64,000 bases of DNA, taken from positions 62,001-126,000 of the forward strand of contig RSEE01000136.1 in the NCBI GenBank assembly GCA_003971905.1, given 5' to 3'. This DNA is from Moniliella sp. 'wahieum'. Its lineage: Eukaryota. A model generated the notes under the pieces. It was not told where the DNA came from. It worked only from the letters and a program-made list of their open reading frames with translations, and did no database searches. Position numbers and translations under genes: made by a program. Shown here piece by piece: positions 3,384-64,000 of the stretch; position 1 is the first letter of the stretch; the number at the start of each line of letters is the position of its first letter.

Positions 3384-5876
3384 CGGTACTCCCCCAAAGG
3401 AGACAACGCCAGTTGAACCTTGTCCTCTTTTGAGTGGCGCCGCTTTCCTGGGATCTCTCTCCTCTGGCCCGGCCGTTGGACAACCAGGGCCGTGGTCGTA
3501 ACAGAGTGGTGGTGTCGGCGGGTGCTACTAGTACTAGTCTGTCGCGGGTGAGGGGTGAGCCCAACCACCTACTGTGTATTATTTGTTTACGTTTCCATTT
3601 TGTATCGCCCAAGTCTTCTGTCTGTCTCTGGGTTTTTCGTCCGCTTTCCTCAACTTGTTCTTATGTATGGGCGTTGTGTCTCTATTTCACCGGTCCTATC
3701 TCGTATCCAAACTGTTTTGTTGTACCGCGAACTGTCTACCAAATATCGTTCCAGCATCATTGTCTCTGTCATGATGCCAGTATTATATGCAGAAGGTACA
3801 CTAGTAGACGCAGCACTAGCGTTTAGTTATACCGTAGTACAGCAGGGAATCATGGTGGCTGGCGAGACTATAGATGGACGGAGAACCACAAACAGATCAG
3901 AGTATCAGTACAAGCGGGTGCGATATAACAGCAGTGCCAGTCGAAGCAAATGCGTGCTTTTGTTACATGACTGGGATGTGCATACTACGAAGAAACGCTT
4001 CTTTTCCCCCACTTGGTTGATAATCTCGATAACGACAGCAGCCTTCCTTGGATTCTGCTGTGCCAATGCGGATCAACTGTTGTCATTGACCTCCACTGTC
4101 GGGATAGGGGTCGAGAAGAACACAACGGCCGGCCTGCCACTGTCTTTGCGCGATTCCTCGGTATGTGGTTCCACGCATATCCATACACCAACGTGGAGCT
4201 GGTGCCCGGTAGAGCATTGCCTGACACGGATGTGGGGGTGTGGACGTGAGGAGAAAGTGCTGATGGGGGTGGGTGACGATGGGCCTGTGAAGGTCGGCCG
4301 CTCAGATATGCTGGTGGATGATGCATGGCGATCGATGATCGATGATCCCAAATCGGATGGCTGTGGATGCTTAGCTAAGCGCTTTAGCGCGTGACGCGTG
4401 ACGCGTGACGGGTGCAATGGGATCTCAATTTCATCACAAGCTGCTGGCTGGGGGTGCGTGGGGGCAGGTGGGGGCATAGGCAGGTGTGAATGTGAGCGCG
4501 AGCACTAGTCACTGTCACCGGTCACTTTGTCACCGGGCACCAACGACCGGCACATGTGACGTCACATGTCACATGTTACACCAACTCAGAACTACTGACG
4601 TACTGCCCACTGCACGCAGCACTATACCCGTCTGAGATTTAGAGTTCTGAGCTCCGGCCGGCACCCTCTGGCTAGGCTCAGCGCTCAGCCGCTGCTCAGC
4701 TCGGGCTGAGTCCTGAGGCTCAGGCTCAGTGCGCAGGCCTCACGCTGAGCTAGCTGCCTGTAACATTAACAGCTGTCCTGAGGCGGCGCCTGCCGAGGGT
4801 GGCGAGGGCGAGGCGGGGTACTGGCGGGGCTTGGCCAAGGCCAGACACACGCAAGCGGGGCGGTGCATTGGGCTCAACGTCCTATCGGAATGAATAAAAC
4901 AGCCCCGGACTCACCGGATCGATGATCGATGCCATGGCTTCAGACGCTTGTGCTTGGATCTCTGGTCCCCAGTCCCTGGTCTCTGGCCTCGGCTCAGCCT
5001 CCGAGATTTCAGAGAAGACGTCTGTAAGCTGTATCTCCGGTGCCGGTGACATGTGAAGCTGTGACGTGTGACATCTGACGGGATTGGATGGATTATCGAT
5101 TACGACTATCGATTACGCGTTACGCGCTGAATAAGCTGAGCATCGGTTGAACACCGCTGTCACCGGTCACATGCACCGGCGAGCGATAATGGATACCTAG
5201 TGATCTGGGCGAGTGGAGAATGGAATTGGATACAGTTTGCTTGACAGGGTGGAGGTGTGGCCAGCGGGGGCAGCAGCTGCCGCCAACAGGGGGATTGGGT
5301 GGCACTGCCATGCGTCCAGGGCGGGCACTGCAGGGCACTGCTTGGCCCGCCTGGTCGCGGCCACTTCAATTTGAAACGCACGCAGTGCGTGATGCGCATG
5401 CGTCATCGCCATCTCTCTCTCCGCCCCGCGGCCGCCCAGGCGCAGCAGCGCACAACAGCAGCCGCGCCCAGAGCGTGCTAGTGCCGCCAGGGGCAGTGCC
5501 AGGCCCACGCGGTGCGGTGCCTGATGCATGGGGTTGCATGCATGCTGCCCCCGCGCGGGCCAGCACCAGCGCGGTGTGCCCCGGCAGCCAGGCGCACGGC
5601 CAGTGTGGGCGCGGGATCGCATGCTGCATGCTATCCGCCTGGTGCATCGCGTATCCAACGGCGAATTTGCCGTGCCAGATGCGCCCGCTCTGCGCCAGTG
5701 CCCGCCGCCCCCGGCCGCTCCCCGCCGTCTGCTGCTCATCCATCCCATCTCTCGCCCCCATCTCCGTCTCTCTCTCCGTCGTCCTTTCGGCTGCCTCCAC
5801 TGCCACCGCCACCGCCTTCGCCATCGCCATCGCCACCGCCCCGCCCCCGCCCCACCACTACCACCACCACACCACC

Positions 5877-8552: not shown

Positions 8553-10732
8553 ACAAGCCCGCCCTCTCGTCCTGCCCACCGCCCTGCCCCTGCCCACCGT
8601 CCTGCCCATCGTCCTGCCATCGTCCTGCCCATCGTTTCCCTGTTCTCCCTGTTCTCCTCGTTCTCCTCGTTCTCCTCGTTCTCCACGTTTTCCTCGCCCT
8701 TTCCCCCGTCTTCCTTCTCTCTGTCCAACCGCGTACAAACCCACTCCCTCCGTTCCCCTCGCCTCTCGCGTTTGACCCCGACGTATTTCAACGCCAGGAC
8801 GGTACCGGTACCATGACCGTTCCCGAGACGCGTCGACCCTGTTGGGTACGACCTTTCGACCTTCGACCGTACGAGCGTACGACCGTACGACCGGTCGCTC
8901 GCTGCCTCTCCGCCTTGGCTTGGCTTGGCGTCACGTACTCCATCTTTAATTCCACCCGATCGCATCGCATCATGGCTGCCTCTTCGCAACTTTCCCCCCC
9001 TAGCGCCTTAAACCTCTTTTCGCTTTTCGGTCGCTCCCCTCCTCCCTCCCCTCTCTACCCGCCTGCTCTGAAGCCAGTCCCTCGCCCTCGCCCTCGCCCT
9101 CGCCCTCGCCCGTTATCTAGTTGTTTTTGCTTGAATCGGTACCCTCATCTCTACCTCTATTCGCAGTCGCAGTCGCAGTCGCAGTCGCAGCTGGCGGTGC
9201 TGGCCTGCCCCTCCCCCCCCGCTGGGGCACGCGCTTAAGTGGTGTATAGAGACAGCGCCTTACTAGGTCGACGGGCTGCCTGGGGGATCCCAGCGTGGCA
9301 GTTTTGTGTGCTGGCTGTGGCGCATGGGGCCTCGTCGATCGTCCACCACTGGCAGGCAGAGCCACAGGCAGGCTCTAAAGGGTTAAATCTTTACTTGGTC
9401 GTACGCCGAGGACCGCATCCTTAAAACTGCTCAGACTGAGCTACACGCGTCAGGGACTAGGACTAGGACGCGGGCGCCCAGCGTCTTCACGGCACGAAGA
9501 TGCAGTCATAGTGACGTTAGCTTGATCTATCTGTGTGTTTGGACCGGTCACAAGCTAGCACGCAGTTGGGTTTAATTTTGCGTCGGGGCAGTGGGACGTG
9601 CAGAACCCAGACCCACCGAGGTAGACCACAGCATGACCGTAGGACCATAGGATCGTGGGCGGGGCGGTCCAGCGCACACTACTTTACTCCCGTTGCTCCA
9701 GACGTCCGTGGTGGGCGGATGAACGGTGTCTGGCTCGGGCTAGTGGGTCCCATGGCAACTTCCAATGCCGGACCGAATCGGTCGTTATGCGGTACGGAAC
9801 GCATCTCTAGGCTTCAGGACTAATATGGAAGAGACTGAACGCCGCCCGTTACCCCGACCTTTCGATGCGCCTACTCTACCCAACCTGGCCTGTTGAGGCT
9901 GCTTCGACCTGTGTATGGAGGATTGGGCCTGTGCCTGACCTGTGTGGTCACTTAAGGAACAAGGATTGCGTGGTCTGGAGGGTCCTGAGTTTCTGACGTG
10001 CTAGGGGCTAGTACATCAGAGAGGTCTGGCACTTGACAGTAGGGTATTATAAGGGTCCCATTCCACTGATGTTGACAGTCTGCGGTGCAGTGGGTAAACC
10101 AGCCTCGATTATTGTCCGCGCACCTCGTCCCTAAGGCCTAAGGACAACTGAGTACTGTGAGTACTGATGCATGAAGCTTGGAGCTTGAAGAGCTTGAAGG
10201 GCGATAATCGACAACGTGATGGTGGGACATACATTTGATGAGCGCGTAGCCATCCACATATCCCATTGAATCTCCTCCTCAGCCCAGCGTCCGCTCGGGT
10301 TTTGGCTCTCAGATCTCAAATCTCGCTAGCGCGTGATACAGGATGCAGGACATGGACAGACCATACCAGGTCTCCGTCTCCCTAGTCCCTCGACTCGTCT
10401 CGGACCACAGGTTCTGGCATGCATCTCCTGCCAAGCAACACACGGACCATGGAACGAGATCCCTAGTCCCTAGCTTCCCTCTGGCACACTGCCCTTTGGA
10501 TATTGGCCTCTGGTTCTTTAAGCTTTAAGCTTTACGCGTTACGCTTACCAAACTCTTGCCAGCGTCACGCGTCACGTCACACATCACATATCACACGTCA
10601 TGCGTCACGCGCCAACCCACGTTCAACGTTCTTGAACGTTCAACGTCTGCCTCGTTCATGCGCACACGCATCCTGTAGCCTGCACGCGCAACTATACCCC
10701 CGATCCACTGTGCCATGTACCCAGCATTGCCG

Positions 10733-10862
10733 CACGCGCGGCGGTGGGGATCTACATGCTACAGACGATCCCGAAACGCATGCGCTTCATACACGCGCGG
10801 CGGTGGGGGATCTACATGCTACAGATGCTACAGACGATCCCGAAACGCATGTGCTCCATGCG
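10733..10862. repeat. 59-bp tandem duplication, second copy with an internal 9-nt duplication
   Basis: CACGCGCGGCGGTGGGG(G)ATCTACATGCTACAGACGATCCCGAAACGCATG starts at 10733 and at 10792. Confidence 0.9.
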
Positions 10863-10892
10863 CAGCTCTCACGCGACGTTGAAGTTCAGTTA

Positions 10893-10942
10893 AACGTTAA
10901 ACGTTAAACGTTAAACGTTAAACGTTAAACACGTTAAACGTT
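10893..10942. repeat. (AACGTTA)5 heptamer array of a palindromic hexamer
   Basis: AACGTT at 10893, 10900, 10907, 10914, 10921 and 10937. Confidence 0.95.
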
Positions 10943-11907
10943 GAACGTGTTGAACGGGGCTTGGCGCTTGGCTGTCAGGCGGTCAAGTAGTCAGAAGGTC
11001 AGGCGGACAGACACGAAGACGGAAAATATGGGACAGACGACCTCGGGACGCGTGATTAATTCGATTAATGATTAATCGATTAATGATTGCCACTGAAAAC
11101 TGAAAACTGAAAACTGTGGCCTGCTCGGTTCGCACCCTGGTACCCGAGTACCCGAGTTGGAGTTGCTCATTAACTGCTAAATTGTTAATTGCCCGCCAAC
11201 GTCCCACGTCTAACCCACAATGCTGCTGTGGGAGGCCGTGCCAGGCCGCATTCCCAGGCTGTGGAGCTAGGCAGCCAGGCCAGTGTTCAGTGTACGCTCG
11301 CCTGCCCTGGCTACGCGTGCGGGGAATCAGGCGAATCCTCACGCGCCTCACGGCTGAGCCTGAGTGACCGGTGAGGCGTAAGAAATTCAGGCGGCGACGC
11401 GTATCACATACATCACATGTCATGTGACGCAGATGGGTGCCCTGCGCCTGCCTTAGCGCCTGTGCCAATGGACGAGCACTGCCGCTGTGCCTGTCTGGAT
11501 CGTCTTGGAAATGGGCGATCCCACGCAGGGCTGCTGCCACGTGGGGAGTGCAAGGTTGCACACGCCCAGGGTCCATGTCTGTTCCACTGCCCCCCTGCTC
11601 CCGTTCCGCGTCCGCATCAGACGGGCGCTGTGCCTCCCCCGGGTGACCGCCGCTCAGCACTAGCTGGCACTCCTGTCTTCCCGCCGGAACTGTATCTGAC
11701 CCACACGCACCGAACATCCTCCTGCCCCACCTAGGTGCTTGGCCGTCGTCCCAGGCATGCCCTTTACAAGTCCAGGTTGTTTGGCTAGCAACTCGCGGTG
11801 CCTATAACCCCCTCCTCTCCACTCTTTTTCTTTATCTTTCTCTTTCTCTGCACCGCCACCACCCCTCTCCACCCCTCGTCGCACCCACTGCCGAATCGAA
11901 CTTCGCC

Positions 11908-13199: not shown

Positions 13200-14003
13200 C
13201 TCATCTTTCGTGCTGCCCATAGCCTAGCGTTCCTTAGCCGCACTGTAGCAAACCGAGGGTTCAACGGTGAAGTTCACCCCTGTCATGGGTCGGATGTTTG
13301 CCGCTTCGGTATGGTTCTGTTGTGGAAATAGTGGGTCTGGGTCGGGGGCTGGTCTCGCCTAGCGTGTGGCCGCTGGCAAGGTGTGACATGTGACATGTGA
13401 CATGGACATGTGATTGGAGACCAGGAGGTCCCAAGCGGTCGTGTCGGCCTGTGAGATCTGAGATCGGAGATCTGGCGTGGTGACATGTGACATGGTGACA
13501 AGCAATGCCTCCAAAGGCCCTGCGATGCGGGAGGAAGATCGGTGAGATGTGACATCGGACGCGCGCTGCGCATGGTTGAACGTTGAAAAGTGTAGTCTGA
13601 GGCAAAGGGGCAGTGTAGGGGACTAGGGAGAGTGATAGTGACATGTGCGGATGTGACATGTGACGGGGAAGGGCAGCTGTCGGGCGGGTGGGCGCGGGGC
13701 GAGTGTGTGGCGCTGTGCGCTTTGCCAGCGGCCAAGCCCAGCGGCCTCCGGCGTGTCACATGTGATGTCGCACCGCACTGGCCAGCGGCTGGGTGGTGGT
13801 GGTGGGCAGGGTGCGGCAGGGTGCAAGTGCTAGCTAGTGCTAGTGCTAGTGCTAGTGCTAGTGCAAGTGCTACTGCCGAGAACCGGAGGCCCGACGATGC
13901 GTCCGCAGCATCCTCCTACCACTCCCACCTCCTACCACTCCCCCTCCCACCACTCCCCCCCCCCACCGCTGCCCCCTCGGCTGCGTGTGCTGCTGCCACC
14001 AGC

Positions 14004-16651
14004 ATGTGGTCGCCTCTGTCCCCCCCACCCCCACCGCCACCCGCCACCACCCCATCCCGCCTGGCCAGCACCCGCTCGCCCCCCCCCCCCCCGCCTCCTC
14101 CTCCTCGTCCCCGCGGCCTCGCCTCCCCGCCGCCATCCCACCCAACTCCGCGCCGCCCTCGGCCACGTTGCCCATGCCGCCTCCCATGCCCTCGCCCCCC
14201 CGGACGCCGACCTGCGCCTGAGCGACAGCGACAGCGACAGCAACAGCAACAGCAACAGCGACACCAGCACGCGCCGACACGACATTGGTCTCGCCTCTTC
14301 TCCCTCCCATGCCTCTCGGCGGCCTACCTCTCGTCGTACCCAGCGCTCCCGCCGTACCCAGCCCACACGCCTCTTCCCTGATGTGCCCTCCGATCCAGCT
14401 CAGCATGAGCCGCTCGAGCCCAACCTGTCAGCAGGCTACATCTTGTCGGCCCAGGAAAGCTCCGAGTTTCTCGGTCCAACCCATCACCGCCACCACAGTC
14501 GCAATGACGAGGGTGTTGCGACTGTGACGCCAACGTACGAGAGATGACCGCAAGCACCAGCACCGATGCTTTGACTTATTCCAAGAGCACCAAAAAGTCC
14601 GCGCTCATGTCGACGCCCGACGCCGAAGCCGACGCTGATGCCAACGTTGTCGATGTCCTCCCTTTCCAGCCGGTCGATGAGGATTGTGAGAGGGAAGGTG
14701 GCGGCCACCCGATTGAACAGCACGAAGACGAAACCAAGCAAGAAGCCTACTTTGACCGTGCCCATTCCTCCTCGGGCAAATACGTGGCAGAGATGGGGCC
14801 GGATGTGCCGATCAAGCTGGCGCATTTATTCAAGCCCCCCATGATCCGACAATGGGTACATGGGTCTCACTACTTTGGGGAAACCAGCGAGCGGGCGCCG
14901 GCCCGGACCGAATTGTTTTTCGACTTGGTAGCCGTCGCTATGGTCCACAAGGTATCGGATTCTCTCATGGAGGCACCTACGCGCGCCATCCAGGTTGCCA
15001 TCTTCGCCATTACGTTTTTCCTCCTCGCCTGGACCTTGTGGCTGGACCAACGTATGATCATCAACCAAAGTGGCAGCGACGATATTTTCCAGCGGGTGTA
15101 CCTTGTTGCTATGATGATTTTCTCCAATGCCTTTATCTCCAATGCAAGCGGGGTAAAGGTGGCTACCTTTTCCAAAGAGGGCGAGGCGAGGGTGGAGAGG
15201 GAGAAGGCTCGGCTGCAACCGAGGAAGCTGTGCGTCTTCTTACCCGATTTGTAGGGCATGCTTTCATCTCTAGGGCGGAGGGTGCCAAGAGACCAGTGGA
15301 AGAGCCTGTCCCGGATCCGGAAGCACACATGTTTGGTCCCTACTACTTTGCTGAACACTGGCATTCTTTCCTTCAAGGTGCCATGAGTTTTTGGCTCACT
15401 GCACGTCTTCTCAAGCTGTGCATACTGGGTGCGTACGCTGTATGGCTGCCCAACTTTCGCGCCGCCCTGCTTCTTCAATTTTGCGTCACGGTCGTTTGCA
15501 CAGTCTGTTTTCTTCCGCTTGCCTTTAGCCAGGAGCCAACTACCGTCATGGTTCTTGCAGTCGTTGGCGTTTTGCTTGATTTTTTCCTCCGCTTCGGTCT
15601 GGCAGCAGCGCAAAAAGGTTTGCATAAGATTGCCAAACGGGGCCGCGGCCACTTCTACTTCCCAGCTCAGTCCGTCGAGCACATGGCAGAGCGCCTGATG
15701 CTGTTCACCATTCTGGTCATTGGCGAAACCATCATGAACTCAGCCTATACGGGATCTACCCCGACCATGGCCATGCTGGATGGGATGTGCTGTTTGGTCG
15801 GTCGTCATTGACGATTATCAATTCCTTCCTTCTGGCCTGGATCTACTTTGACGCGGATGGCTCACGTACGTTTGTGCATGCTCTCCGACGACACTACCAC
15901 CATGCGCTGCAGTTCACCAACATTCATGCACCCCTGTGCGGGGTGATTGTACTGTCCTCGGTGATCCCCAAGCTGATTGCCAACGACACGGTAGACCAAG
16001 GTACATTGTGTACTATTCTGGCGGCTTGGCCGTTGCGTTATTGAGCATCGCTGTGATTGCGTGTCTACACGAAAGCCTGGACCTGCACGGATCCGCGTGG
16101 TTCTCTACCAACTCACGTATCTTGGCGCGCGTGCTAGCCGCCACCCTGTTCCTCTGTTTGCCCATCAAGGCCAACTGGCGCACGGTGCACTACCTTGGTG
16201 TGCATTCAGCCATCTTGCTCGTGCTCGTCATGTTCGAGACGGCAGGCAAGATAGGGGCCGTGGGACGGGTGTACGACGAGTCGCGCGCAAAGGCGTTGCA
16301 CGAGTACCAAGAAGCCATGGATGCCACCCGACGAGGTCACTTGGGGAATACAGCTACCCTAGCCAGTTTGAGCGGGAGCAACTTTGCCGCACTCGAAGTC
16401 AAGCCCAAGTTACCTTCGCGCCCACCCAGAGCCTATGGGGCAAACTTAAATTTTACGCTACCCAGCTCCGCGCTAAGTTCGATAAAGAGTACTTGTCCCC
16501 CGGGCCGTCAGCCAAGAGCCGCTGGCACAATTACGAAGACTTGTCCTACAACGAACGGGGCGAGGAAGATGTCGGTAACGAGGTCGAGTTGGGACAGGTC
16601 GAACCTCATAAGTTGCGTCCGTCGAGAAGGTGGGCCTTGACCGCGTTTTAG
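14004..16651 (+). CDS. LtrA (low temperature requirement A) family multi-pass membrane protein
   Basis: ERAPARTELFFDLVAVA, DDIFQRVYLV, EHMAERLMLFTILVIGE and LAWIYFDADGSRTFVHALRRH motifs plus many TM segments across frameshifted ORFs 14544-16651. Start uncertain. Confidence 0.82.
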
Positions 16652-16653
16652 TA

Positions 16654-17428
16654 CCCCCCCCCCCCCCCCCCCCCCCCCAACAGCCTAAAGGCACATTGCA
16701 TGGGGAAAAGGTGCGCGTTGCGTTCCTCCACGCCTCCCATTTTTCCCCCTCGTTCTGTTTCCTCCCACTTCCTCTTGTTGTGCTTGTGCCCCCGGCCTGC
16801 ACCTGCACCTGCACCTGCACCTGCATCTCAACCGAACCTGCACCTGAACCTGCACATTCACCCTCATTCCATGTCTTTTCAAGCCTTGCTGCACTGCACA
16901 TTCCCCCCCCCCCCCCCCCCCCCCCCTTCATTTTTTCTCTTGCACATCGCAGTTTGCCCTTCTACTAGCTACCACTTTTCCAATCCGAATCCCAATCCGA
17001 ATCCCAATCCCAATCCCAATCCGAATCTCAATTCATTTTGCCCGCCTCGTCATACTCTCTTCATGGTATCTTTTCTTCGTGGTATCTTCGTGGTATCTTC
17101 ATGGCCTCTTCGTGGCCTTGTCATGGCCTCTTCGTGGTATCTTCATGGTATCGTCCACACAACTCTTGTGCCAACACCACGGTCGTTCCCTCGTAGCCGT
17201 CGTTCAGTCTGGTGTCCCTCCGCACCACCTGGGGGCTTTTTCCTTCGTCCTGGGCGGTTCGTGTTCGCACTATGAGATGGTAGATCAACGACCGAATATG
17301 CGTCGACATCATTCCCCTCCGCACAGACAGGCCTCATCGTTCGCCTCCATATCCATATCCATATCCATATCCATATCCATATCCATATCCATATCCATAT
17401 CCATATCCATATCCATATCCATATCCAT
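16654..17428. repeat. Cluster of simple repeats: C25, (CACCTG)n, C24, (CC[C/G]AAT)n, 11-bp minisatellite TCTTCRTGG[TA/CC], (ATATCC)~13
   Basis: Read directly at 16654-16678, ~16796-16850, 16903-16926, ~16979-17027, 17058-17152 and 17346-17428. Confidence 0.9.
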
Positions 17429-18935
17429 TGTTCTGGGTGCTCCGGTCATCTCCGAACACCGAGCCCCGCATTTCGTAGAACTTCATCGATCACACGCCAG
17501 CCCTGCGACACTATCTGCGGCGCCCGGTCTTGACAGAACCCCACATCGACTGCGGCCCACTGGATCGCAGTCCTGGTACAACCCCACATCTACTGCGCCA
17601 AACAGATCGCAGTATGGGCAGAACAGGCCGCCCTTTATCCCTTACTACTGTAGATTCCCTTCCTTCTGTTGAAGCCTGTTCTGATGTTACGGTATATAGG
17701 CAAGCCCGGTCTAAGGCTTGCTGGCGCTGATCCTCACCGCCCAACCCACGTCTTCCCCCCGACTTCCCTCTCCACTCTTCAAGCTTCACCCTTGATACGC
17801 TTGCTTACGAATTTACGGCTTACAATCGACCACTCTGCAAGCTGCGGTTACTAGTTACTATCAGTAGCGCTTGCTCTTCTTTAGGACCCTGTCTGTTTCC
17901 GCCTACTACAGCGTACCGAGTGTGGTAACGCCGCGAGGAACAGAGTAATTTCGGAGATCCTGGACCCCTTCAATTGGTCTTACGACCTACGTACGCGGCT
18001 CCTACCTCGGAGGGTCTGAGCTGCGGCCTTTGCACGCAGGTAGCCACCCAAACTAAGGGTCTCTCCCTTGCCTCTACACCCGCTCTGATCGGTCCAACCA
18101 GGATCTGAAGCAGGACATAACGTATGTAACTCTAATGCCATGTCCAAGGGCTTTCACCCTAAATTCCGGGGACGGTCCGTCTCGGGGCTCGCCCCATGAC
18201 ATCCATATTCATATCCATATCCATACCTCTTGCTACTCGTTTTTGTTCCTAAGTTGGGCCGTTGCTATGGTTCCGACACATTGATGCACGGTACATGATG
18301 CAGGCGTGCATGAGGGTGCATGCGTGCCTTGGCGGTGGTACATGGTACATGTTATCCTTACCACTGACTGCCATGCAATAGTATGCAGCGCTGCTGGATT
18401 GGGCGTTTGGGGTTGTGCCCTCGCTGTCTTCCTGGGGGGGTTGCGATTTGCACCTACCGACCAATTGAGTTGTTGCTGTTTCCTGGCCATGGTATATGGC
18501 AATCGATGGCAGCCATAGCTGGAGGTGCCATTGAAGGGTTTGTGGTCGAGACGCAGTGAAGCTTGAAGATCGGCTGAGACGGGCAGGCGGCCCAGCCTGA
18601 CCCACCCGACACTGGTTGTGGTGGGGCCGGGTGGGAGTCCAGCACGTGGAGCTGAGCCGGCAGAATTTTTGGATCGGGCCACAAGCGCTAGCAACTGAGC
18701 GTCTCGACCTTAAATGATTCATGGTTAGTTGATTGGTTCTTGATCGATGGGCGACTGCCGACGTCGACGATTTGGCTTGGCAGGCGGGCGGAGGGTCAGT
18801 GTGCAGATCTCGCCGCTGAGGTTTCGCAGACAACCACCAAGTCGGTCCTCGGCGCCCACCCCCCCCACCACCCCCACCACCACCACCACCACCGCAGCCA
18901 GCAGCCCGCAGCCCGCACCCAGCACCCAGCACCCA

Positions 18936-21323
18936 ATGGGCGGCGGCGACGGCGACGGCCCCCCTGCGCGGCCGCTTGCCCCCGCCTCGCATCCCACCTA
19001 CTCCCTCCGCTTTGCGCCGCAGCTCTACGACGCCCCGCCGCCGCACCACGTCACGCTGCCCGCCGCGCCCTGGCTGCCGGCGCCCGCGCTGGGGCTGGCC
19101 AGCTGGATGGCCTCCCCCCCCCGGCAGCTCCCCCGTCGTGCGCCGTGCCGCCCAGCCCAACACCACCCGCTACACGGCCGCCGTGCATGCAGTCCGCATT
19201 GGCTTCCGCAACCCTTGGCGCAGCTGGCACCACCCCAGCCCCCTCCAGGTCTGGTCCGGCCTCCAGTGGGGCGGTAGCACCTCGTGCTGCCCATCTGCTG
19301 CCCCCACCCGTCCCGCAAGCGCGCTGGACGGCGACGCGGAACTAGCCGGCACATGGATCGAGTCGCCAATCTCTAGTGCTCGCCCGAGCTGGGACCAGGA
19401 CGAAAAGCCGTCACCTTTGTCGCTCACCCCGCCGCTGCAGGAGCCGGCGATGCAGCCCGTCGCCACCCAGCCCATCGCTTCTTGGCCTACCTTTCTTGCA
19501 CCCGACGAGACGCGGACGACGTGGATCGGCCATGCGAGCGTGCTCCTCGAGTTGCCCGTCCCGTCGCCCCAAGGCGGGCAGGGGGGGTGCTGCGACTGCT
19601 CTTTGACCCCATCTTCTCTGAGCGTTGTTCTCCCACGCAACGCTTTGGTCCGCGTCGGTCCCTCGAGGTACCGATCGCCGTGGAGGACTTGCCTCCGATT
19701 GACCTGGTGCTCATTTCCCATTCCCACTACGATCATTTGGACTTTGACTCGATCGCTGCTCTCCTCGCTGCCAACGGGACCAGCGTCAAGTTTTTGTCCC
19801 CTTAGGAAACAAGGCGTGGTTCCTGTCCTCGTTGGTGGACCACGGATTGGAGGAGGAGACGGTGTTCGAGTGCGACTGGTGGGATGAGGCGGTGCTCTCT
19901 TTCCCCTTTTCCGAAAAGAATGTGGGGATGAGGGAGCAGAACGTGGCCGAGGGGACCGTGGAGGCCGAAGAGGCACAGGTAACCGTCAAGGTCACTTGCA
20001 CCCCTGCCCAGCACGGTTCTGGCCGAGCAGGGATCGATGCAGATTCTACCTTGTGGAGCAGTTGGTACATCACCTATTCTCGTCCCCGACCTCGGCCGAT
20101 GACCAAGGAAAGAGTTTCCGGGCCTTTTTCGCAGGCGATACTGGCTTCCAGTTCCACGACCCGGCCACAGCCAAGAAGGAGGACGAGACCGAAAGTGATT
20201 CGCCCCCGGCCGGATCCACCCTACGTCAACCTCCTCGTAGCCAAACAGCGGCGCCTAGTTTGGGTGGCAAGAACCTTTCTCATCTTGTCGAGACGAAGGT
20301 GAAACGAGTTCTTACGTCGCGCACGTCGTTCAGTACACCGAAGAAGAAAGATATCTAACCCCTCAGGGGAGGAGCATTCACAACTCGCTTTCGCTGCCGA
20401 AACCTTCGTTCGCTCGGCTGCGTCAGGATCGACATCGCACCACTTCTTTGCATACGGAAAGTTTGGTCTCGTCGATATCGAGGAACCTCCCGTGCTCGCC
20501 AGTCCTCATGCTTCCCATCTCTCAGCCACACACACGCCTACCCTACGCCTACGCATGTCCCCCCGCCTCAGTTTCTCCACTACCGGTCTTTCCGAGCCCT
20601 CGTCTTCCCCGGGGGCATCGACGGTTCCCTCTCGGAACCTGCGCTTCTTACTCCCGTGCATCCTACGGGCGAGAGGGCTCTGACCGTGACCGGCTCCCGT
20701 ATCCGCCGCGCGGTACCTTGCGCAACAGGAGACGACGAGCGCAAGACAAGTACCCCCACTGCCCGGCATTTGAGGAGATTGCAACCCGTCTCGGTCCTCC
20801 CGATCTCAATATGCTCCCGATCAGCGTGGGTGCCACATTGAGCTTCCTCAAAGGCTTGGACCCCTTCCCGCAAGCTTGGTCCCCGTTCCCTGTGGCGTGC
20901 ACGAGGGCGTCACGGCGGCCAACCATATGACCCCGCAGGACGCCGTGCGGTGTTTCCGCCTGATGGACCTCACCCGTCCGGTTGCGCCGACGCCGGAGCC
21001 TGCCACGGACCAGAACCAGAACCAGTTCCAGGACTCACCAGTGCATCCGCCCGTCGCCTTAGCCATTCACTGGGCTACGTTTGTCGGCGACCCCGATGAG
21101 GCGCGCCGGTCTCTTCACCGCCTTGGCCAGGCCTGCCGCGACTGGCACGTCCACTTTGCTCGGTCCTTGCCACCCCGCGCCCCACCGCCACAGCCACAGC
21201 CATAGCCACAGTCCGGCCGACACCGATCCCACCTTCCTAGCTATCAATCCCGGTGAAAACATTGTCTTGCCGCTCCGCCCTGCCGCCTCATCGACATCCA
21301 TCATCTCCTCGAGGCAAGGGTGA
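18936..21323 (+). CDS. NAPE-PLD/Fmp30-like metallo-beta-lactamase-fold phosphodiesterase
   Basis: TWIGHASVLL, LFDPIFSERCSP, DLVLISHSHYDHLD (HxHxDH), CDWWD, PAQHGSGR, LWSSW, FFAGDTGF, CPAFEEI, HMTPQDAV and AIHWATF occur in the correct order across frameshifts. Confidence 0.9.
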
Positions 21324-21544
21324 CCGGTGATACCCGCATCCATCTCATCGACTCATCCATCTCCTTTCCAGCTTCACACGCTTCACGGTACAGGTAAAGT
21401 AAGCGTACGCGTGGCTCAGTTGCTCTCTGCTCTCCATAAACGTTCCGTCCGGTCTGTTCGTAATGACATTGGTGCATTTTATTTTCTCTCCAGCCGCGCT
21501 CTTCCACGCGAGCTGACGCATCGGTAGGACAACAGCCAGCCGGG

Positions 21545-27722: not shown

Positions 27723-28642
27723 CCTGGGTGGTTGCAGCAGCCAGCGGCGGGGGGTTAGAGGGCGCCTCGGCATGGCCACTGCATGCTGCCCGCCCTGCCT
27801 TGCCCGTGCAGCGCCCGGCAGCGCCCCTGCAGCTGCCCCCTGCATGCACAACCCCCTGCAGCATGCTGCACCATGCCCCCTGCCCCCTGCCACGTTGCTG
27901 CCCGCGCCGATTTCACATTTCAGCCCACCCCGACCCACCCGCCGCCGCCTCCACGTCACCACATCACCAAACGCGTCGCCCTCTCCTCGCCTCTACACGC
28001 GACGCACACGAGAACCACACCCACCTATCTTCGAATCGAAACCGTGGCTTCTCTTCATGGTCAACCTGGTGTGGCTAGAGCCTTGAGAGCCACCGTCGCA
28101 TGGTGTTGTGTGTAAGAACGCACCAGGACATCCGATCATCAACCAACAGACACGCTCCAGCCAAGCGGGTACGCTCATCACAACAACATCCCTTGTCGTA
28201 CACGGCGTTGATTGCATGTCATAGGCTGAGTAGGCTGAGTAGCCCTGCCCAGCCAAGAGGCTAGCGCTTGCACCGATGCCAGGCTGAGCTTGCGTAACGC
28301 GTAATGTAGCCTTCTTCCCACTCGGTGGTCCACGTCATGCATCATGCATCATCTCTCAAGCATCATGCATCTTGGCCTCGGCCCCACTGGCCTTCGAACA
28401 TAGCAATGTGGTCCTCGGACTGAAACATTCAATGGCGCCGCACGACACATGGTTCACTAGTCACTCCCGAAAGAACCCACGCTCGATAAGGCATCGCAGC
28501 GGATTGCTGGCGGCAGTGCCATCACCCGGCCACGCCAAGGACAATCACCATCACCACCACCACCACCGCCCAGCACTGCCGCCACCATCCCCAGCACGGT
28601 GCGATCCTGATTCGTATCGTCTCGACGTTCCTGCCGCACCGG

Positions 28643-38158: not shown

Positions 38159-38190
<32 letters not shown>

Positions 38191-38720: not shown

Positions 38721-38794
38721 GACAAAGTCAACCAGACCGATCGATACCATCGGTTCGAGGCGCTAGTCCATCAAGTCTACAGTCACCCGACCCG

Positions 38795-44000: not shown

Positions 44001-44857
44001 TCAAACCTCAAGTTTCAAGCTCTTCAAGCTGTTTATACGAATTCGGTGTTCTGACAAGCCTCAGTTCCTCCTCCACAGTCGCTTCAAACCCCCGATTGGT
44101 TTCCATTGAATTGGAGGATCAGACCGATCAGGGCAGCAGCTGGCACGAGGCACAGGCTGCCAGCCAAAGCGAGGCCAGATGCGCGCCCAGCGCCAGCACC
44201 CAGCGCCTAGGAACCACTGCTAGGAACTGTACCTACTTGCGCTTGGTGGGCGTTTTGAACGCTGGCGCTGACCCTCATGTGTTGGCTGCTGGGTTGGAGA
44301 TGTCAATAAAAGCCCCAGGCTGTGCATGATGCATGACCTGCATGATGGTTCGATGTTTGCTGATGGGTGCTAAGCTAATGCATAATGCGTAATGGATGAT
44401 GGCGTTGATGGCTTGGGAGTGGTTGGTGGGCAGGCCCGACGCGTGTTGTACGTAGTGCTTGGTGGCACCAAGTGGCTGAAGCGTCGAGTGGAGCAAAGAA
44501 GAGGAGTAGGCGGTGCTGTGTGGATGCGAGAAGCGCAAGGCAGCAGGCACCCAGCGGAATGGGCGCGCGGCGGAATGGCGTGGGAGCGAGCGAGTGGCGC
44601 GCAGAGATAGACGGGGCGGCGCTCGATAAGCACCGCCCCAGTGCGACGCACCCGTGTGGCGTGGCGTCGCCCCCAAGCACAAGAACAAAGCACAAAGCAC
44701 ACCAGCACAGGCCGTGCTCAGCGCCACATCACCCATGCATCACCCTCCATCCCGTGCATCCTAGGTTGTGCGGACGCCTCAGTGTCGCAGATACCCTCCC
44801 ACGCGGGCAGTCGTGCGCTCGGTCGCCAGACGCTCCGCACCAGCCAGTGTGCGCCCC

Positions 44858-53849: not shown

Positions 53850-54639
53850 TGGCGCGTGATCATGTGATAGGCGATGCATGGAGCAAGTTGGCCCGTTGGA
53901 ACGACGCGGTCTTTGCTGCCTGGGCGTCCTTCTGTGCCTTGGTCCAACTGGGCCAGGCTGTTGCGTTTCATCGCACTACCAACCCCGTGTCCCGACCAAC
54001 CGTTTCCCTCTTGTTCGTTTTGGTGCAAGTGTGGTGTCGGGATTCCTGGTGACTATCACGAGCGCTGACAGTGGTGGAACTGGCTCGACTATGTCAACTT
54101 TCTCTTTTCATCAAACTCATCATTACCCTTATCAAATACATCCCCCAGGTTGCTCAACTACCATCGCAAATCAACACGAAGCTATCGAGTCGAAAACCTG
54201 TTTGCCGATCTCGGTGGAGGCATGTTATCCCTCGCTCAACTTGTACTCGATGCATTCATCGAGGGCGACTGGAGCGGCATCATGCATCACCGGCCATCCC
54301 GCCAAGCTGTATGTCATGATTTGTATTGTATCTTTGGTGAGAAACGTACGCTAACTTCGTCTTCCTGTTCTCTCGTTTGGTGGGATTGCTCTTACTGCGC
54401 TCGGCATGGACGTCATCTTGATTATTCAATGGGAAGCATACGACAAGAAGCCTGCCGGCTCTGTCCTGACCGACGAGAGGAAGCAAGCCCAGGTGAGGCC
54501 ACTGAACGAACGTCACTTCTTTTCGAACGTTCATAAATCCCTTCAGCCTTACCTCGACTCAATGCAGCTTGTACGGGTTCCGCATTCATCCGCCTCTCAT
54601 CGCCCGACGCTCATCGCCCACACCGTTCAACGCCTTTGA
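53850..54639 (+). CDS. Cystinosin/ERS1-like PQ-loop protein, only the C-terminal part recognisable (possible truncated gene or pseudogene)
   Basis: WNDAVFAAWA, IKLIITLIKYIPQV, LNYHRKSTRSYRVENLFADLGGGMLSLAQLVLDA..DWSG..HPAKL and MDVILIIQ. No first PQ-loop was found upstream. Confidence 0.7.
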
Positions 54640-55677
54640 TACCGGTGCTTTCTTCGACGACCATATATGCCACTGATTAATGATTGTACGATAGACTCAA
54701 GAGTTTCTCTTTCTGTATGAATGTCATGCCAGTTTCACGTGTTCTCTTCTTGTTCAAGAACCGGGGTGCCTTTTCCGTTTCGGCATCCATGCACCAGACA
54801 TGCCACATGACCAAGAAAATGAAGGTCCAATGTGACGACCCGAGGTGGATGTGGGGGGATTCACTCGACGATCTTCAGCTCCATAGATCGGAAAGATGCA
54901 GCAACGCTTCGTGCAACGACCTCGAGTATCAAGTTGGTTTTCTTAGTGCTCCCTACACCCGCCATTTTGAGTCTGGTAATGCGGTAGATCTGCTTCGTGG
55001 TCACTGTGCCGGCTACCTCTCAGCGCCAGGCCCATGAGAAGACCCATTTTCGATTCCGGTCGCTTTATGAGGCAGCCAGCTCGCGTGATTTGTTGGTTAC
55101 AGCAGGCTGTGCAAATCATACTCATTTGCCCCACACCTACATTGCGCCGGCCCATCCCCCCATAAAGACCTTGACGGGGGGGAAGGGGATGTCGAGGAGG
55201 ATGTGGGCAGTGCGGGCATTGAACTGCTTGGCAAAACCAATGGCTTTCACGTCGTTGGATCAAGGCACGGGGCCCACGGGGGTCTGAGCCGAAGCTTTGC
55301 CAGCCGGCATGACCAAGCGACCCTCCTTGGTGGCCCAGCTGGGGGGCCTTCGGTTGGATCCCCACTGCCTGCCCTCGGCTCTTAGATCTTACGTGCCAAC
55401 ATTTCGAAGCGGCCGGCGGAACAACTAGCTAGGATGTGGGGTCGGGGCGGAATTTGCGACGATGAAATGTCAACTTTCAGCAGGCGCCATACCCGGTATG
55501 CCCGCTGTTTTTTTCCGGGGGATCAGGCGGTCAGGCCAGGGAGAAAATCAGATAGTAGTCGAGCAAGATCTTGGGCGGAGAAAGGGAGGTACGGCCACGA
55601 GTCGCACCATCTTTGCTCTGATTTGACTCGGAACCCTTCCACCACCACCAGCTTCTTCTTCTTCTGCACCTTCGAAG

Positions 55678-56782
<1,105 letters not shown>

Positions 56783-59770
56783 TTGGGCTTTCACTCTGGC
56801 AATACATGCAGGGCCTTGGTCATGGTATTACAGACACAGGATGCCCTTTCTTCAGAAAAATCCACCAGTAACGACAGGGGATGAAGCATAGCTGTATAGT
56901 ATAATTGTGGCCAAACAGGGCGAATTTGGACAAGTACGAAGATGGAATGCATTCGAGGCAAAGGATCCACCAAAGGCGGCTACAATGAGAAAACAAACTA
57001 AGCATGTGAAGAACCAAAGGAACCTGTGGGCAATCATGCGGTAGTCCACCATGTCGCAAAGGTGTACACGGATGCCAATCATTTTGAGGGTACTAGTAGA
57101 AGGTGTGCGAGACACATTCGTCCACTCTCCGAACAAAAACGATCCACTGCACAGCAGAGGAGAGGTTGTGCCACTACTGGCTATAGCATTATATTCGAAC
57201 CAGCTCGATCACTTGATCTGGATCTTTCCTCGTCAGGTAGCGAAGTTCCTACTCGGCGCGTTGCTCCGCGGTAGAACTGGCGAGCGGATAAAGCGGGTAT
57301 TGGGAACCTTCGTATTACTGATATAAAAGAAGATGCTGATTGTTGTGTGTTGTACCATGGAGATGGTATAGCTTCCCGAGACCGGTGCAACGGTGGGACC
57401 ACAACAGGTCACTCATTACTCACTGCTCCGTCCGCGCATGCCCTTTCCTTTTTGTGCTCCTGCGTTCGCATCCTTCTGTCTTTTCCCCCGCTTCCACTCG
57501 ATACTTGGTTCGATAATCGATACCGTCCACCGGTCACATTATGGTCACGCCCTTCCTGCTCGTGATCCGCGTGATCAGATCCCTAGCTTTTTTCCGTCAG
57601 TATGCCAAGTAGGGGCCATCTGATCGGGGCCAGTTGGCCACGGAGCAACAGTTGAACTATGGGAGCAAAGGAAACGGATACGACCATTGAATAGTGAAGC
57701 TTGAAGCTTGAAGCTTGAAGGGCCATCTCTGTTACGTTGTTGCGCCACAGGGTGACTGGTGCGTTTCTGACCAAAGCTGGTCCCTTGACTCCCTCCTCAG
57801 ACGTAGGAGCTCCGATATTTTCTCATCGCTTATATCTTGCCTGGTCCGCTTCCAGGCCCAGGCGGAACTGGCTGCTTGCTTGAAGCTTGAAGCTTGAAGC
57901 TTGAGCTTGACCCCTGAAGCTTGGTACCCTGAGGCCTGAGAAGGGACTGAACGCGCCTTGGGCCGTAGTAGCTACTGGCCGGCTAAACGCACAAGCTTCC
58001 TGTGGCTCAATCGAGTGCACGGTGAGAAGGAGAAACGATGTCCGATGATGATCGATGATCAGGGAAAACGACATGCAAGGGCGACGACACCGACGCAAGG
58101 AGACGACACTGAGTACTGACGCAAGGGAGACAAGGGGATGCGCGCGCTCTGCTCGTCCGATCTCACCCGGCACGTACATGCTCGTGGAGATGCAGAGGGG
58201 TCGCCATGGGTCCAGCCTGGCTCACCGGTCACATGTCACGCACCATGCATCTCAGATCTCATGGCAGATGCATCCAGCGGCTTCTGGAGGGGAGTGCCAG
58301 CAGAGCAGGGGGTCAGCAGCTTCTACCGATCTATCCATCTCCCCCAGATCCCCCCCCCTTGCGCCCATGGGAGACAGGGAACGGAAAACGCGGCGGAGGT
58401 GGTGGGTCGCGTGGGCGTGGCCCTGTGTGGACTGGCAGGAGCAGGGCGGAGCAGGGCGGAGCCCGGAGGCCGTGGGACGACTGTTATTACGAGCCGCGTG
58501 AGGCCGAGGGCCTGAGGGTGAGTAGGTAGTGCACGCTCATTTCCGTTGCCCCCCCGACCCACACCAACCCACCATCTGATGGAAGAGCGACGTACCCCTT
58601 ACCTCGAGACTTGGAGAGTGAACCAGCAAGCACGCTGCACGCGAGCCCCTTGCACCAGTTGGCAACGTGTTGCATTTACTCGCTCGGCCGTCCCAGTGGG
58701 GAAAAGACAAATGATTGATGAGATACCCGTAACGAACAGTTCTTGACCATGGGTCACGAAGATGATGCTTGAGCTTGAAGGTCGGATGTGGGTCGGAGGG
58801 GTCGGACCGGCACTGTGGTCACTACTAGGGTCACTATTAGTACTGGTCACTGGGACCTGGCTTGGGCTGTGCGCTCGTTGAGCGTTGAGCCAGCCGCTGT
58901 GTTGGCATGTGGCTCTCAGATCGATGATCGATGATGGATGATCCGAGGGACCGATTGCCAACAGTTCCTCTCCATTGTGTGGATGTGTGATTGGTGTTCC
59001 ATGCTGTTTGTGGGAAGATGTGCAAGGCAACGCATGGGCAGTGTGGAATGCCGTGCCTATAGTACCTACTAGGAGGTGACTAAGTTGTGGCCCACGTCGT
59101 CTGCTCCGGCACCGAGCATCCCAGCGCACACATGTGCAAAACAATAGTCCGCATTAAAGTTTAGACGCCATCAATATACGTACCCCTGCACCATCCACAT
59201 CCGAGCGAGAGAGGCGGCAACGCGGCGCCCTGAGACGCAGGAATCAGACGCGTTATTGGCTGCGGTAAACACGGCCAGTCACTAGTTACTAGTTACTGGT
59301 TGCCATGTAGTTCTTGGCTGCCGACTCCCGCAGGATCGCCGGCGCGTCGACGCGCCGATGAGAGACTGCCGAAAGATCGTCATCGATCATCCGTCCCCGG
59401 GCGCTCGCTTCAGCGCCCTAAAGCTTGAGCCTACCCAGCCTTCTGGCTAGTACTGTGCGAAGTGCCCCTTCTTTCGCCTGAGTGTGAAGGGGTCTTGTCG
59501 GAGAAGGTTTGCACGCAGGGTTCAGGTATCACTCAGTAGGGGCGCACAAGACGTGTGTATGCGTATTAGCCGCGCTTGATCCAACTCGCTAAATAGCGCC
59601 CCTCCCCTCGCGTTGTCCGTCCCCCGTCCCCGCCCCTGCACCTTTTGTTTTTCCAGCCGACAGCCAGCCGCATCGCATATAGCGGTCCCCGCCACGCTCT
59701 CTTCCTGCGTCCGCCTCTCCCTCCCCCCACCCCCAGCCCGTGCTGTCCCATAGCCGTACCAGCCACAGGC

Positions 59771-62620: not shown

Positions 62621-64000
62621 TCCGTGGGCGATGGGTATTATACAAATTCCTGATCGATCACTAGCACTGTTGATGCATCTCAATCTGGCGCAGCATGATG
62701 CATGACACCACTTTCTCATTCTTCCCTTGGTTCTTCCACTTTTTTCTTGATTATGGACACCGCAATTCGTCTTCTTTCACGGCCCTGTTGTTGCCTTTGC
62801 GGTTTTCCTCGCAAGAAGGTGCTGGAACGCTGCACCGGTACGATACCGTCCCTGAATAGGTTTTTTCCATTATATATGCCAACAAACCGTTTAAGGTTTC
62901 TATGCGTTGTTCCCAAACCAACCACCCCCCCCCCTCCTCTCCTTCCTAACGAGGGTGATCAGTAACCAAGCCCCTCCCACCCGCGCCCCCTCCGGGGGTT
63001 TTTATGAGAACCGAACCCATTGCATATAACTTTCTTTTTTGCTCTCAGAGTCAGACCCTGAAGCTCGAAATTGACCCTTTTTATTACCTGAGAGATGGCC
63101 ATCGATCAGGGTCGGTAACCGGTAAACCCTCACATAGCCCATACATGCAACTACGATAGCCTATTCTCCAGTGGTTGTGGTACAGATTGTGAAAAAAGAA
63201 CGGGGGAAGAGCACTCGGGCATCCTACGGGTTGCCTACAGGTATAAGGCGTGAAGGTCACGCGGTGAGCACCAGCTTTCTTCAGGGAACGTCGGAATACT
63301 ATAGGGGAGGAAACAGGAGAATGATAGGGGAGGCATGCAGACAGGGCAGCTGAGGTGGGTGACATGTGACATCTGCATAATTGGAGCGAGCAGCGGGATG
63401 CGTACTGATACTACTAACCTTCTGCGAGCGGAAGCGGAACTCTTTCGCCCCCGGTCAACGTGTGAGCTTCTAAGGGCCGTGCAGGGGGAAACAAGAGGGA
63501 GAACAGGGAGATCCCAAAGTTAAGCACTGCTCTACTTCTTACATCTCCGTGGTACATCTGCGTCGCTAGTAGTAACTAGTCACTAGTCACTAGTCACTCT
63601 ATAGATAGTGACAACGAGTAACGATGATAAAACGAGAGTAGTTATATAATAACCTAGTGACGGGACTAGTCATTAGACACTGATAGCCCACACGGCCATC
63701 TGCCCGGCGCTGGCCTTGCGTATCTCGAACCCAACTTGCTTGTAGATCGAAGATCCTGCACCCCGAACATCCTTTTGGCATGCTACAGCAATACGTGATG
63801 ATGAAGGGCAACCTAACTACTAGGCCAATAGGGCCCAAGTGCTATTGACCAACCCCGCGTTTTGGGTGGATCGATCATGGAGATTCGGTGTGAGATCTGT
63901 GAGATCTGAGATGTGTGAAAAGGGTGCAGTGGTTCAAACCTAGATCCTGTCGGGAGTAACTAATAGCGCGCAACGCGTACCCCGCATGTGGACGAAGGAG

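Follow-up and report, generated by a model that had tools for sequence, protein, structure and literature searches.

Short palindromic repeats with a period of 7 nt are scattered through the non-coding DNA of a 64,000-nt stretch from the fungus Moniliella sp. 'wahieum' (GenBank assembly GCA_003971905.1, contig RSEE01000136.1, positions 62,001 to 126,000 of the forward strand; hereafter the window), and they are probably the excision footprints of a cut-and-paste DNA transposon that would have entered and left T-N-A sites. Their common unit, a 4-nt palindrome enclosed by two copies of the same T-N-A triplet, is present 87 times against about 1.5 expected, which shows that the pattern noticed in a first-pass annotation of this DNA is real and non-random. 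The excision-footprint reading is preferred because a duplication of fixed length at a preferred target, palindromic joins templated by the flank and small variants in length are together a known signature of such events. The anatomy of the elements and their statistics are observed here; the transposon, the hairpin chemistry and the repair pathway are what we infer from the sequence.

A direct repeat with a palindromic middle

In the following, x is the middle base of T-x-A, P4 is a 4-nt palindrome, and the core is TxA-P4-TxA with the same x on both sides; positions are those of the window, and no strand is assigned to the elements. Because gene finding by GC3 was uninformative, coding DNA was approximated by Pfam-supported open reading frames (ORFs) only, giving 14,602 nt inside and 49,398 nt outside. 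The Pfam scan, with a cut-off of E <= 1e-5, took in 264 ORFs that were 110 aa or longer, and 33 of them were rescanned at E <= 0.05. Expectations were taken from a Markov-2 model of the whole window and from Markov-3 simulations (100 for hexamers, 60 for cores outside Pfam-supported ORFs).

The 87 cores compare with 1.57 expected under the Markov-2 model, whereas the Markov-3 null outside Pfam-supported ORFs gave 1.3 +/- 1.05 with a maximum of 5; together the cores cover 813 nt of the ~49 kb outside these ORFs. Control cores with other fixed bases were at chance (AxT 0, CxG 8, GxC 7). When all 64 triplets were tested as flanks of P4, only TGA (38 vs 0.88), TCA (29 vs 0.57), TAA (11 vs 0.08) and TTA (9 vs 0) were enriched. 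The base x is copied directly at a lag of 7 nt, with TGA followed by TGA 63 times and TCA by TCA 55 times over a baseline of ~15, while TGA followed by TCA was found 12 times, at its baseline (~12), and perfect palindromes of the form TGA...TCA showed no enrichment. An element consists of a direct repeat around a palindromic centre and is not a perfect palindrome. T and A are the sole fixed bases of the unit, and both x and P4 track the background composition: x (32 G, 24 C, 8 T, 7 A) is near the 3:1 TSA:TWA background, and the P4 types are used in proportions near those of the dinucleotides following TNA in this DNA. Of the 16 possible P4 types 15 occur, TATA alone being absent; the first-pass annotation had listed 14. 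Its proposal that geometry is conserved (T-N-A every 7 bp around a self-complementary core), and not one sequence, is borne out.

Each of the 25 hexamer coordinates quoted in the first-pass annotation proved exact, and for 18 of them the identical hexamer recurs at a distance of 7 nt. There are 62 perfect period-7 repeats with a length of 14 nt or more, and in 35 of them the unit is a 6-nt palindrome plus one base, the dyad-symmetric fraction expected for random units of window composition being 0.11; the palindromic units comprise 32 of the A....T class, three G....C and none of T....A or C....G. Hexamer palindromes of the A....T class occur 286 times against 172 +/- 12 under the Markov-3 null, whereas the C....G, G....C and T....A classes are at or under expectation. 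The autocorrelation of TNA has its maximum at lag 7 (223 vs ~100). Across periods 4 to 12, the excess of dyad-symmetric units is unique to period 7, the fractions at periods 4, 5, 6 and 8-12 being at or under the null. After masking the period-7 runs (2,737 nt), lone A....T palindromes were at expectation (179 vs 171 +/- 11), as were TxA-centred 7-nt odd palindromes (163 vs 154 +/- 12). The excess of A....T palindromes is wholly tied to tandem context, and nothing selects palindromes as such.

Flank templating, junction classes and position

The 87 cores form 68 chains, which are grouped in 25 clusters. Arrays had been described as the typical form, a description that does not hold, since just one junction (1.4 to 1.7 'copies') is present in 55 of the 68 chains, two in nine, three in three and five in one. 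The lengths of period-7 runs peak at 12 and 13 nt (23 and 18 runs, with 0.6 and 0.2 expected), not at 14 nt. Around the 55 isolated cores, the period-7 match extends 2 nt on each side (left 0.75 and 0.58; right 0.62 and 0.53) and then falls to chance. In 47 of these 55 cores, one half of P4 reverse-complements the dinucleotide that lies just outside one TxA (chance 0.12, p = 4e-35), the corresponding control values being 1/8 for CxG and 2/7 for GxC. Templating came from the left flank only in 21 cores, from the right only in 18, from both in eight and from neither in eight (odds ratio 0.17, p = 0.003); that is, it was one-sided in 39 of the 55. The typical element is the 12-mer TxAbc-c'b'-TxAbc or its mirror image. 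The idea that these 12-mers are decayed 14-mers or remnants of longer arrays was rejected because the flank match goes no further than 2 nt and left and right templating show a negative association. Mixed chains share x and differ in their palindromes, as in TGA-GTAC-TGA-TGCA-TGA (10158-10174), TCA-CCGG-TCA-CATG-TCA (58222-58238) and a chain of three junctions in which TTA is combined with AGCT, AGCT and CGCG (10516-10543).

The duplicated unit is 7 nt long, nnTnAnn. If a 7-bp duplication is written as l2 l1 TxA r1 r2, the unmodified junction between its copies, r1r2|l2l1, is 4 nt long, hence the period of 7, and complementing either half by the other gives exactly the two mirror-image 12-mers. 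A minor class at period 9 consists of two whole 7-mers nnTnAnn separated by 2 nt that are reverse-complementary to the adjacent end (9 vs 0.03 expected). The 7-mer is non-symmetric in five of the nine cases, namely GATTAAT-TC-GATTAAT (11054-11069), CCTCACG-CG-CCTCACG (11337-11352), CTTCAAC-GT-CTTCAAC (22820-22835), CGTGATC-CG-CGTGATC (57561-57576) and TGTGAGA-TC-TGTGAGA (63889-63904); the remaining cases are CTTGAAG-AG-CTTGAAG (10184-10199), GTTAAAC-AC-GTTAAAC (10924-10939), GTTGAAC-GT-GTTGAAC (10940-10955) and GTTCAAC-AC-GTTCAAC (42511-42526). In total, 7-mers recur at period 9 at 152 positions: among the 12 that are TnA-centred (T at 3, A at 5) nine obey the 2-nt rule, compared with three of the 140 lacking this centre. 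A period-8 class (P4 plus one retained base) was found 11 times against 2.9 expected. Other junction types were not enriched, including TxATxA (36 vs 27.5), non-palindromic 4-nt spacers (69, near chance after discounting alternative frames inside arrays) and odd palindromic spacers, which were at or under chance (16/72 for k = 3 and 2/42 for k = 5). The period-9 class, which adds 9 nt, is the only scar class that keeps the reading frame. The case at 22820-22835 is in frame and lies in long repeat-rich ORFs (22023-23072, plus strand; 22518-24263, minus strand).

The first-pass annotation had seen no arrays in conserved coding domains, and this was confirmed: the Pfam-supported ORFs, 14,602 nt in all, contain a single chain among 68 (p = 7e-7), at the last bases of the PQ-loop ORF (AA-TCA-TTAA-TCA-TT, 30789-30802). 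TNA sites are not scarce in coding DNA (453 inside Pfam-supported ORFs vs 1,824 outside). Two chains of TCA/TGCA with two junctions each are found upstream of genes, one in the divergent Vps54/PQ-loop spacer (28335-28351) and the other 5' of NDUFS2 (35964-35982). Downstream locations include the 3' sides of the superoxide dismutase gene (TC-TAA-GATC-TAA, 32435-32446), of the dehydrogenase gene and of the tannase-like gene (CA-TGA-TGCA-TGA, 62694-62705), and a further element, AT-TGA-ATAT-TGA (34144-34155), occupies a convergent 3'-3' spacer. Because the elements occur both 5' and 3' of genes, the location upstream of ATGs that had been pointed out is not specific. Such a distribution agrees with the loss of insertions that shift the frame of coding DNA and not with a role in promoters.

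Excision and hairpin repair as the probable source

In the proposed mechanism, a transposon would insert at nnTnAnn and generate a 7-bp target-site duplication, l2 l1 T x A r1 r2. On excision, each flank end would be sealed as a blunt hairpin, which the host would open ~2 nt from the tip, so that the duplex would end at TxA and carry a 4-nt self-complementary 3' overhang, r1 r2 r2' r1' at one end and l1' l2' l2 l1 at the other. End joining would then keep one overhang and trim the other. The product seen in the window is TxA + P4 + TxA with the same x, a period of 7 and a palindrome copied from one flank. The less frequent variants at period 8 and period 9 (two 7-mers plus 2 P nucleotides) would follow if the other end were opened at or near its tip. 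Every scar includes a perfectly symmetric nnTnAnn, to which re-insertion and re-excision, or later slippage, may add identical 7-bp units, and events at a TxA with other flanks may give rise to the mixed chains sharing x. Scars that shift the frame would be purged from coding DNA and would therefore accumulate in spacers, where the elements are in fact found. The model accounts for the period, for T and A being fixed and x identical, for an even palindrome that depends on one flank, and for the minor classes. It would also account for the many different hexamers that look like restriction sites, since any palindrome that is written ends up between A and T. Four features by which footprints are recognized are present: a direct duplication of fixed length (7-nt nnTnAnn), flank-templated P nucleotides at the junction (47/55), a shared target preference, only TGA, TCA, TAA and TTA being enriched as flanks of P4, and a range of junction variants (periods 8 and 9).

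Excision footprints with P nucleotides are textbook biology, and on the preferred reading the elements reflect a known mechanism whose products are exceptionally dense and uniform here. For classic hAT elements the duplication has 8 bp, nTnnnnAn, in which T occupies position 2 and A position 7, and the target preference is a symmetric T...A. Transib makes 5-bp duplications, PIF/Harbinger elements target T-N-A (usually TTA or TAA) with an extended palindromic target, and Artemis-type nucleases prefer to open hairpins ~2 nt off the tip. Hairpins are formed on the DNA next to the element by hAT, Transib, RAG and a Mutator-like element (MULE), and footprints remain after end joining (PMC5499845). 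[quoted passage not shown] The elements in the window resemble those of hAT transposons (Ac/Ds, Hermes, hobo) in that both duplication copies are kept, a P insertion is templated by the flank with a few nt lost on the other side, and the joins point to end joining (PMC5873905, PMC5499845). They differ in the 7-bp duplication with T at 3 and A at 5, and, while the Ac/Ds footprints are heterogeneous (PMC5873905), even palindromes with one dominant outcome are seen here. A classic 8-bp hAT footprint was accordingly rejected, as the T and A positions are wrong and the palindromes even, not odd.

Coding joints of V(D)J recombination and the blunt hairpins of Transib offer another likeness, namely even palindromes from hairpin opening ~2 nt off the tip, but the joins in the window are without non-templated additions and have a 7-bp unit, and nothing points to a Transib or RAG relative in this fungus. 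A 5-bp duplication with 2 P nucleotides was considered and was superseded by the period-9 class with its whole 7-mers. Duplications of 7 bp are known from Basidiomycota in hAT7 (rust fungi) and Kyakuja (KDZ; Laccaria), which are described from Pucciniales and Agaricomycotina (PMC12730594). The likeness lies in the length of the duplication, and no copy of either is present in this window; hAT7- or Kyakuja-like families are leads to the identity of the element. PIF/Harbinger/Tourist elements share the T-N-A-centred target; in the PIF type, however, a 3-bp duplication and generally precise excision are reported (PMC4561436), whereas a 7-nt direct repeat is present here. After excision of Tc1/mariner/Stowaway elements, a small target duplication flanks a few extra, palindrome-like bases (PMC4561436), but these derive from the element ends and are constant, whereas those in the window vary with the local flank. 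A PIF- or mariner-like scheme of a 3-bp TNA duplication plus 2+2 nt from the element ends was rejected because the palindrome varies with the flank and 15 of the 16 types occur at background frequency. In marine Beggiatoaceae, intergenic direct repeats of the heptamer TAACTGA are reported to be abundant (PMC4679880), a fixed-sequence bacterial case that is superficially similar and probably unrelated. In titles and abstract openings of the literature, no such lattice, no spacers with footprints at this density, no TnA-centred 7-bp target with a stereotyped junction and no footprint-built 7-bp arrays were found, nor was there support for 7-mer repeats in Ustilago maydis, which had been mentioned as a possibly related phenomenon.

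Several observations weigh against the excision-footprint reading. No transposase domain was found in the 264 ORFs of the window, including the 33 rescanned, and the 64 kb contain neither terminal-inverted-repeat elements flanked by nnTnAnn (the sole matches were arrays matching each other) nor a dispersed repeat or miniature inverted-repeat transposable element (MITE) carrying the units; a MITE or other dispersed repeat as the carrier of the arrays was dropped for that reason. With no transposon in the window, the agent would be known only from its scars. Their density is high (68 chains vs 1,824 TNA sites outside Pfam-supported ORFs), so a very active or long-lived element would be needed. 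The near-invariant central T and A in a 7-bp duplication are unlike the classic hAT consensus, and the even palindromes differ from those reported for Ac/Ds, which are centred as described above (PMC5873905). Junction variants at periods 7, 8 and 9 do form a spectrum, but one narrower than the published Ac/Ds spectra. Junctions keeping both overhangs (P4-P4) number zero in the window and unmodified TnA-centred 7-nt duplications only four independent cases, so processing would have to be unusually stereotyped. In addition, G precedes the outer TxA in 21 of the 39 one-sided scars (background 0.26, p = 3e-4), which the model does not predict, and the mirror-image C shows no counterpart bias (11/39); the G bias may reflect which overhang is kept, or a bias of target or repair. 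Finally, the ends of the arrays lack one clean phase.

Several other sources of the elements were weighed. A host-encoded nuclease (for example, a domesticated transposase) could cut nnTnAnn in open chromatin with a 7-nt stagger, repair then writing the duplication and the palindrome; the lack of a transposon in the window, the high density and stereotyped outcome, and the clustering of scars in particular spacers would all suit it. It is nevertheless unlikely, given that a symmetric staggered cut with fill-in predicts unmodified duplications, of which there are four beside 68 palindromic chains, that a duplication plus flank hairpins needs two reactions, insertion and then excision, of the kind that a transposon carries out, and that no candidate gene was seen in the window. 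Replication is a quite unlikely source. Here the growing strand, having reached TxA, would copy 2 nt from another template, fold into a small hairpin and realign 7 nt further back, and hairpin-stabilized slippage would expand the units. On paper this yields the 12-mer TxAbc-c'b'-TxAbc, short tandem repeats of many periods are plentiful in the window, and the longer arrays (13 of the 68 chains have at least two junctions) probably grow partly by slippage. Hairpin or triloop stability, however, should favour G/C-closed units and other periods, whereas no G/C preference is seen, CxG and GxC are at chance, AxT is absent and period 7 alone is affected. Template switching, or quasi-palindrome correction, predicts a complemented x, yet TGA...TCA is at baseline, a result that speaks against a structure-driven origin as well; the 12-mers are not decayed 14-mers; and the shared TnA-centred 7-nt unit of the period-7 and period-9 classes is left unexplained. 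The first-pass annotation had listed a repair or template-switch process that writes palindromes among its options, and the repair part came closest and is essentially right, while the template switch fails. Plain microsatellite slippage was rejected as well. Like microsatellites and promoter tandem repeats, the elements are short non-coding tandem units, whose longer arrays probably vary by slippage. Slippage does not choose one period, two fixed bases and a flank-templated palindrome, though, and most elements have fewer than two copies.

A selected cis-element or DNA-structure lattice, in which TNA at 7-bp spacing is bound by protein or extruded as hairpins or cruciforms to regulate genes or chromatin, had been the headline of the first-pass annotation, along with a TNA-reading protein and a chromatin signal. 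In its favour, the elements cluster and lie in non-coding DNA, some units match palindromes known as fungal regulatory sites (such as ACGCGT and TGACGTCA-like sequences), and scars could be co-opted secondarily. But only two bases are fixed, the remainder tracks background composition, the core is copied from the adjacent flank (47/55), most chains are single junctions, lone palindromes are at expectation, and elements are found on both the 5' and the 3' side of genes as well as in a convergent spacer, which leaves these proposals unsupported and such a lattice very unlikely. An array of transcription-factor sites was rejected on similar grounds, there being no conserved recognition sequence and no enrichment of single sites. 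The earlier judgement that ordinary slippage or a single transcription-factor motif explains the pattern poorly agrees with the excess being specific to one period and unit and with T and A being the only fixed bases. An assembly or sequencing artefact is hardly credible, since ~70 independent sites have an exact internal logic (flank-templated halves, strict T and A) and keep to non-coding DNA, a pattern that does not arise from any known platform error.

If the excision-footprint reading is true, a visible share of intergenic sequence would owe its origin to transposon excision followed by the repair of hairpins, and a countable fossil record of transposon traffic would exist in a region without a transposon. 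The scars would also serve as a natural readout of hairpin opening and end joining in this fungus, and would supply promoters and untranslated regions with new palindromic sites and tandem repeats. As a caution, periodic non-coding palindromes that look designed can be products of repair, not signals. It is conceivable, although we put it forward tentatively, that an unrecognized, extremely active cut-and-paste lineage (or its domesticated descendant) scarred several percent of the non-coding TNA sites and re-enters its own scars to build 7-bp arrays, such that footprints, not slippage, would be the main source of short tandem repeats and palindromic hexamers, those that look regulatory among them, in promoters of this lineage. 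Features of that speculative lineage might include a 7-bp duplication, a near-absolute central T-N-A target and blunt flank hairpins.

Elements and other features along the window

The leftmost elements are GA-TGA-TCGA-TGA-TC with one junction (4334-4347), a two-junction chain of TGA/CGCG (4390-4410), TCA-CCGG-TCA with one junction and no flank match (4515-4524), TCACA-TG-TCACA, whose template is the right flank (4562-4573), the symmetric 14-mer GC-TCA-GCGC-TCA-GC (4676-4689), TGA-CATG-TGA with one junction (5047-5056), GA-TTA-TCGA-TTA, whose template is the left flank (5091-5102), the right-templated TTACG-CG-TTACG (5113-5124) and TCA-CCGG-TCA (5160-5169). An 18-nt perfect palindrome, ACATGTGACGTCACATGT, occupies 4552-4569; the polarity of x flips there from TGA to TCA around a central ACGT, and the palindrome includes a TGACGTCA (CRE-like) core. 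Between 10130 and 11422 are found CC-TAA-GGCC-TAA-GG (10130-10143), the left-templated TC-TCA-GATC-TCA (10307-10318), CG-TCA-CGCG-TCA-CG (10563-10576), the longest array of the window, (GTTAAAC)x6 with five junctions (10889-10930), TGA-CCGG-TGA (11365-11374) and TCA-CATG-TCA (11413-11422), together with mixed chains and period-9 cases given above. Two 9-nt tandem duplications occur in the densest scar cluster, at 10149-10166 (TGAGTACTG x2) and 10181-10199 (GAGCTTGAA x2.1); the latter fits the period-9 rule and the former does not fit cleanly. A 35-nt segment is also present twice in this scar-rich spacer, 69 nt apart and at 94% identity (10756-10859).

Further along, a chain of TGA/CATG with two junctions (13382-13402) is followed by the right-templated TGAGA-TC-TGAGA (13452-13463), TGACA-TG-TGACA (13481-13492), the left-templated GT-TGA-ACGT-TGA (13575-13586) and TG-TGA-CATG-TGA (13652-13663). 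Neither TTA-AATT-TTA (16446-16455), which may be due to chance, nor TCA-TCGA-TCA (17483-17492) has a flank match. They are succeeded by CT-TCA-AGCT-TCA (17777-17788), TTACT-AG-TTACT (17848-17859), TGAAG-CT-TGAAG (18557-18568), GG-TGA-CCGG-TGA (21319-21330), CG-TAA-CGCG-TAA (28293-28304) and TCACT-AG-TCACT (28454-28465), and then by TGAAT-AT-TGAAT (31213-31224), GT-TGA-ACGT-TGA-AC (31231-31244), TGATT-AA-TGATT (31503-31514), TCA-AGCT-TCA (31529-31538) and TGAGT-AC-TGAGT (32898-32909). The region 36000-44400, ~8 kb without a Pfam-supported ORF even at E <= 0.05, holds 10 scar chains: TC-TGA-GATC-TGA (37130-37141), TGAAG-CT-TGAAG (37257-37268), TCA/GATC with two junctions (41518-41534), GC-TAA-GCGC-TAA (42211-42222), CA-TCA-TGCA-TCA (42296-42307), TCACC-GG-TCACC (42368-42379), TGAGA-TC-TGAGA (42714-42725), TCA/AGCT with two junctions (43932-43950), CA-TGA-TGCA-TGA (44325-44336) and TAATG-CA-TAATG (44376-44387).

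In the last part of the window, CA-TCA-TGCA-TCA (54278-54289), TGATT-AA-TGATT (54674-54685) and TC-TTA-GATC-TTA (55380-55391) precede two arrays of TGA/AGCT with three junctions each (57695-57720 and 57879-57904), CC-TGA-GGCC-TGA (57928-57939), GA-TGA-TCGA-TGA-TC (58047-58060), AC-TGA-GTAC-TGA (58108-58119), TC-TCA-GATC-TCA (58250-58261), GA-TGA-TCGA-TGA (58923-58934), AG-TTA-CTAG-TTA-CT (59284-59297) and TCATC-GA-TCATC (59380-59391). The remaining elements are GG-TAA-CCGG-TAA (63114-63125), TGACA-TG-TGACA (63360-63371), a chain of TCA/CTAG with two junctions (63578-63598) and TGAGA-TC-TGAGA (63900-63911). Identical 12-mers recur at unrelated loci (13452, 42714, 63900, 10307, 58250 and others): TGAGATCTGAGA was found three times and its reverse complement twice, and CATCATGCATCA, TGAAGCTTGAAG and TGATTAATGATT twice each. 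This recurrence may hint at a target preference beyond T and A.

The window is eukaryotic DNA with a G+C content of ~59%. Its Pfam-matching ORFs encode an AGC kinase, an LtrA-like protein, a metallo-beta-lactamase fold, Vps54, a PQ-loop protein, an Fe/Mn superoxide dismutase, a cytochrome b5, the 49-kDa subunit of complex I, a LIM-C1-RhoGAP protein, an alpha/beta hydrolase, an isocitrate/isopropylmalate dehydrogenase and a tannase-like esterase. The top named relative of the AGC kinase is from Microstroma glucosiphilum (67% identity), followed by many fungi at ~60%, which places the source among the basidiomycetes, probably in the Ustilaginomycotina or near them, with no close named relative in that search. 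Other repeats include near-perfect hexamer arrays that are unrelated to the 7-bp class, (TGGCAC) x18.8 at 33776-33888 and (TCCATA) x13.8 at 17346-17428, and two pure poly-C runs ~250 nt apart, at 16654-16678 (25 nt) and 16903-16926 (24 nt). A 15-nt unit with ~26 copies in three blocks (22337-23047), located in overlapping long ORFs with a weak Pentapeptide_2 Pfam match, is probably a coding repeat. Tandem duplications with periods of ~171 and 176 nt and 72-93% identity were also detected at 130-657 and 2482-2799, in ORF-rich DNA without Pfam matches.

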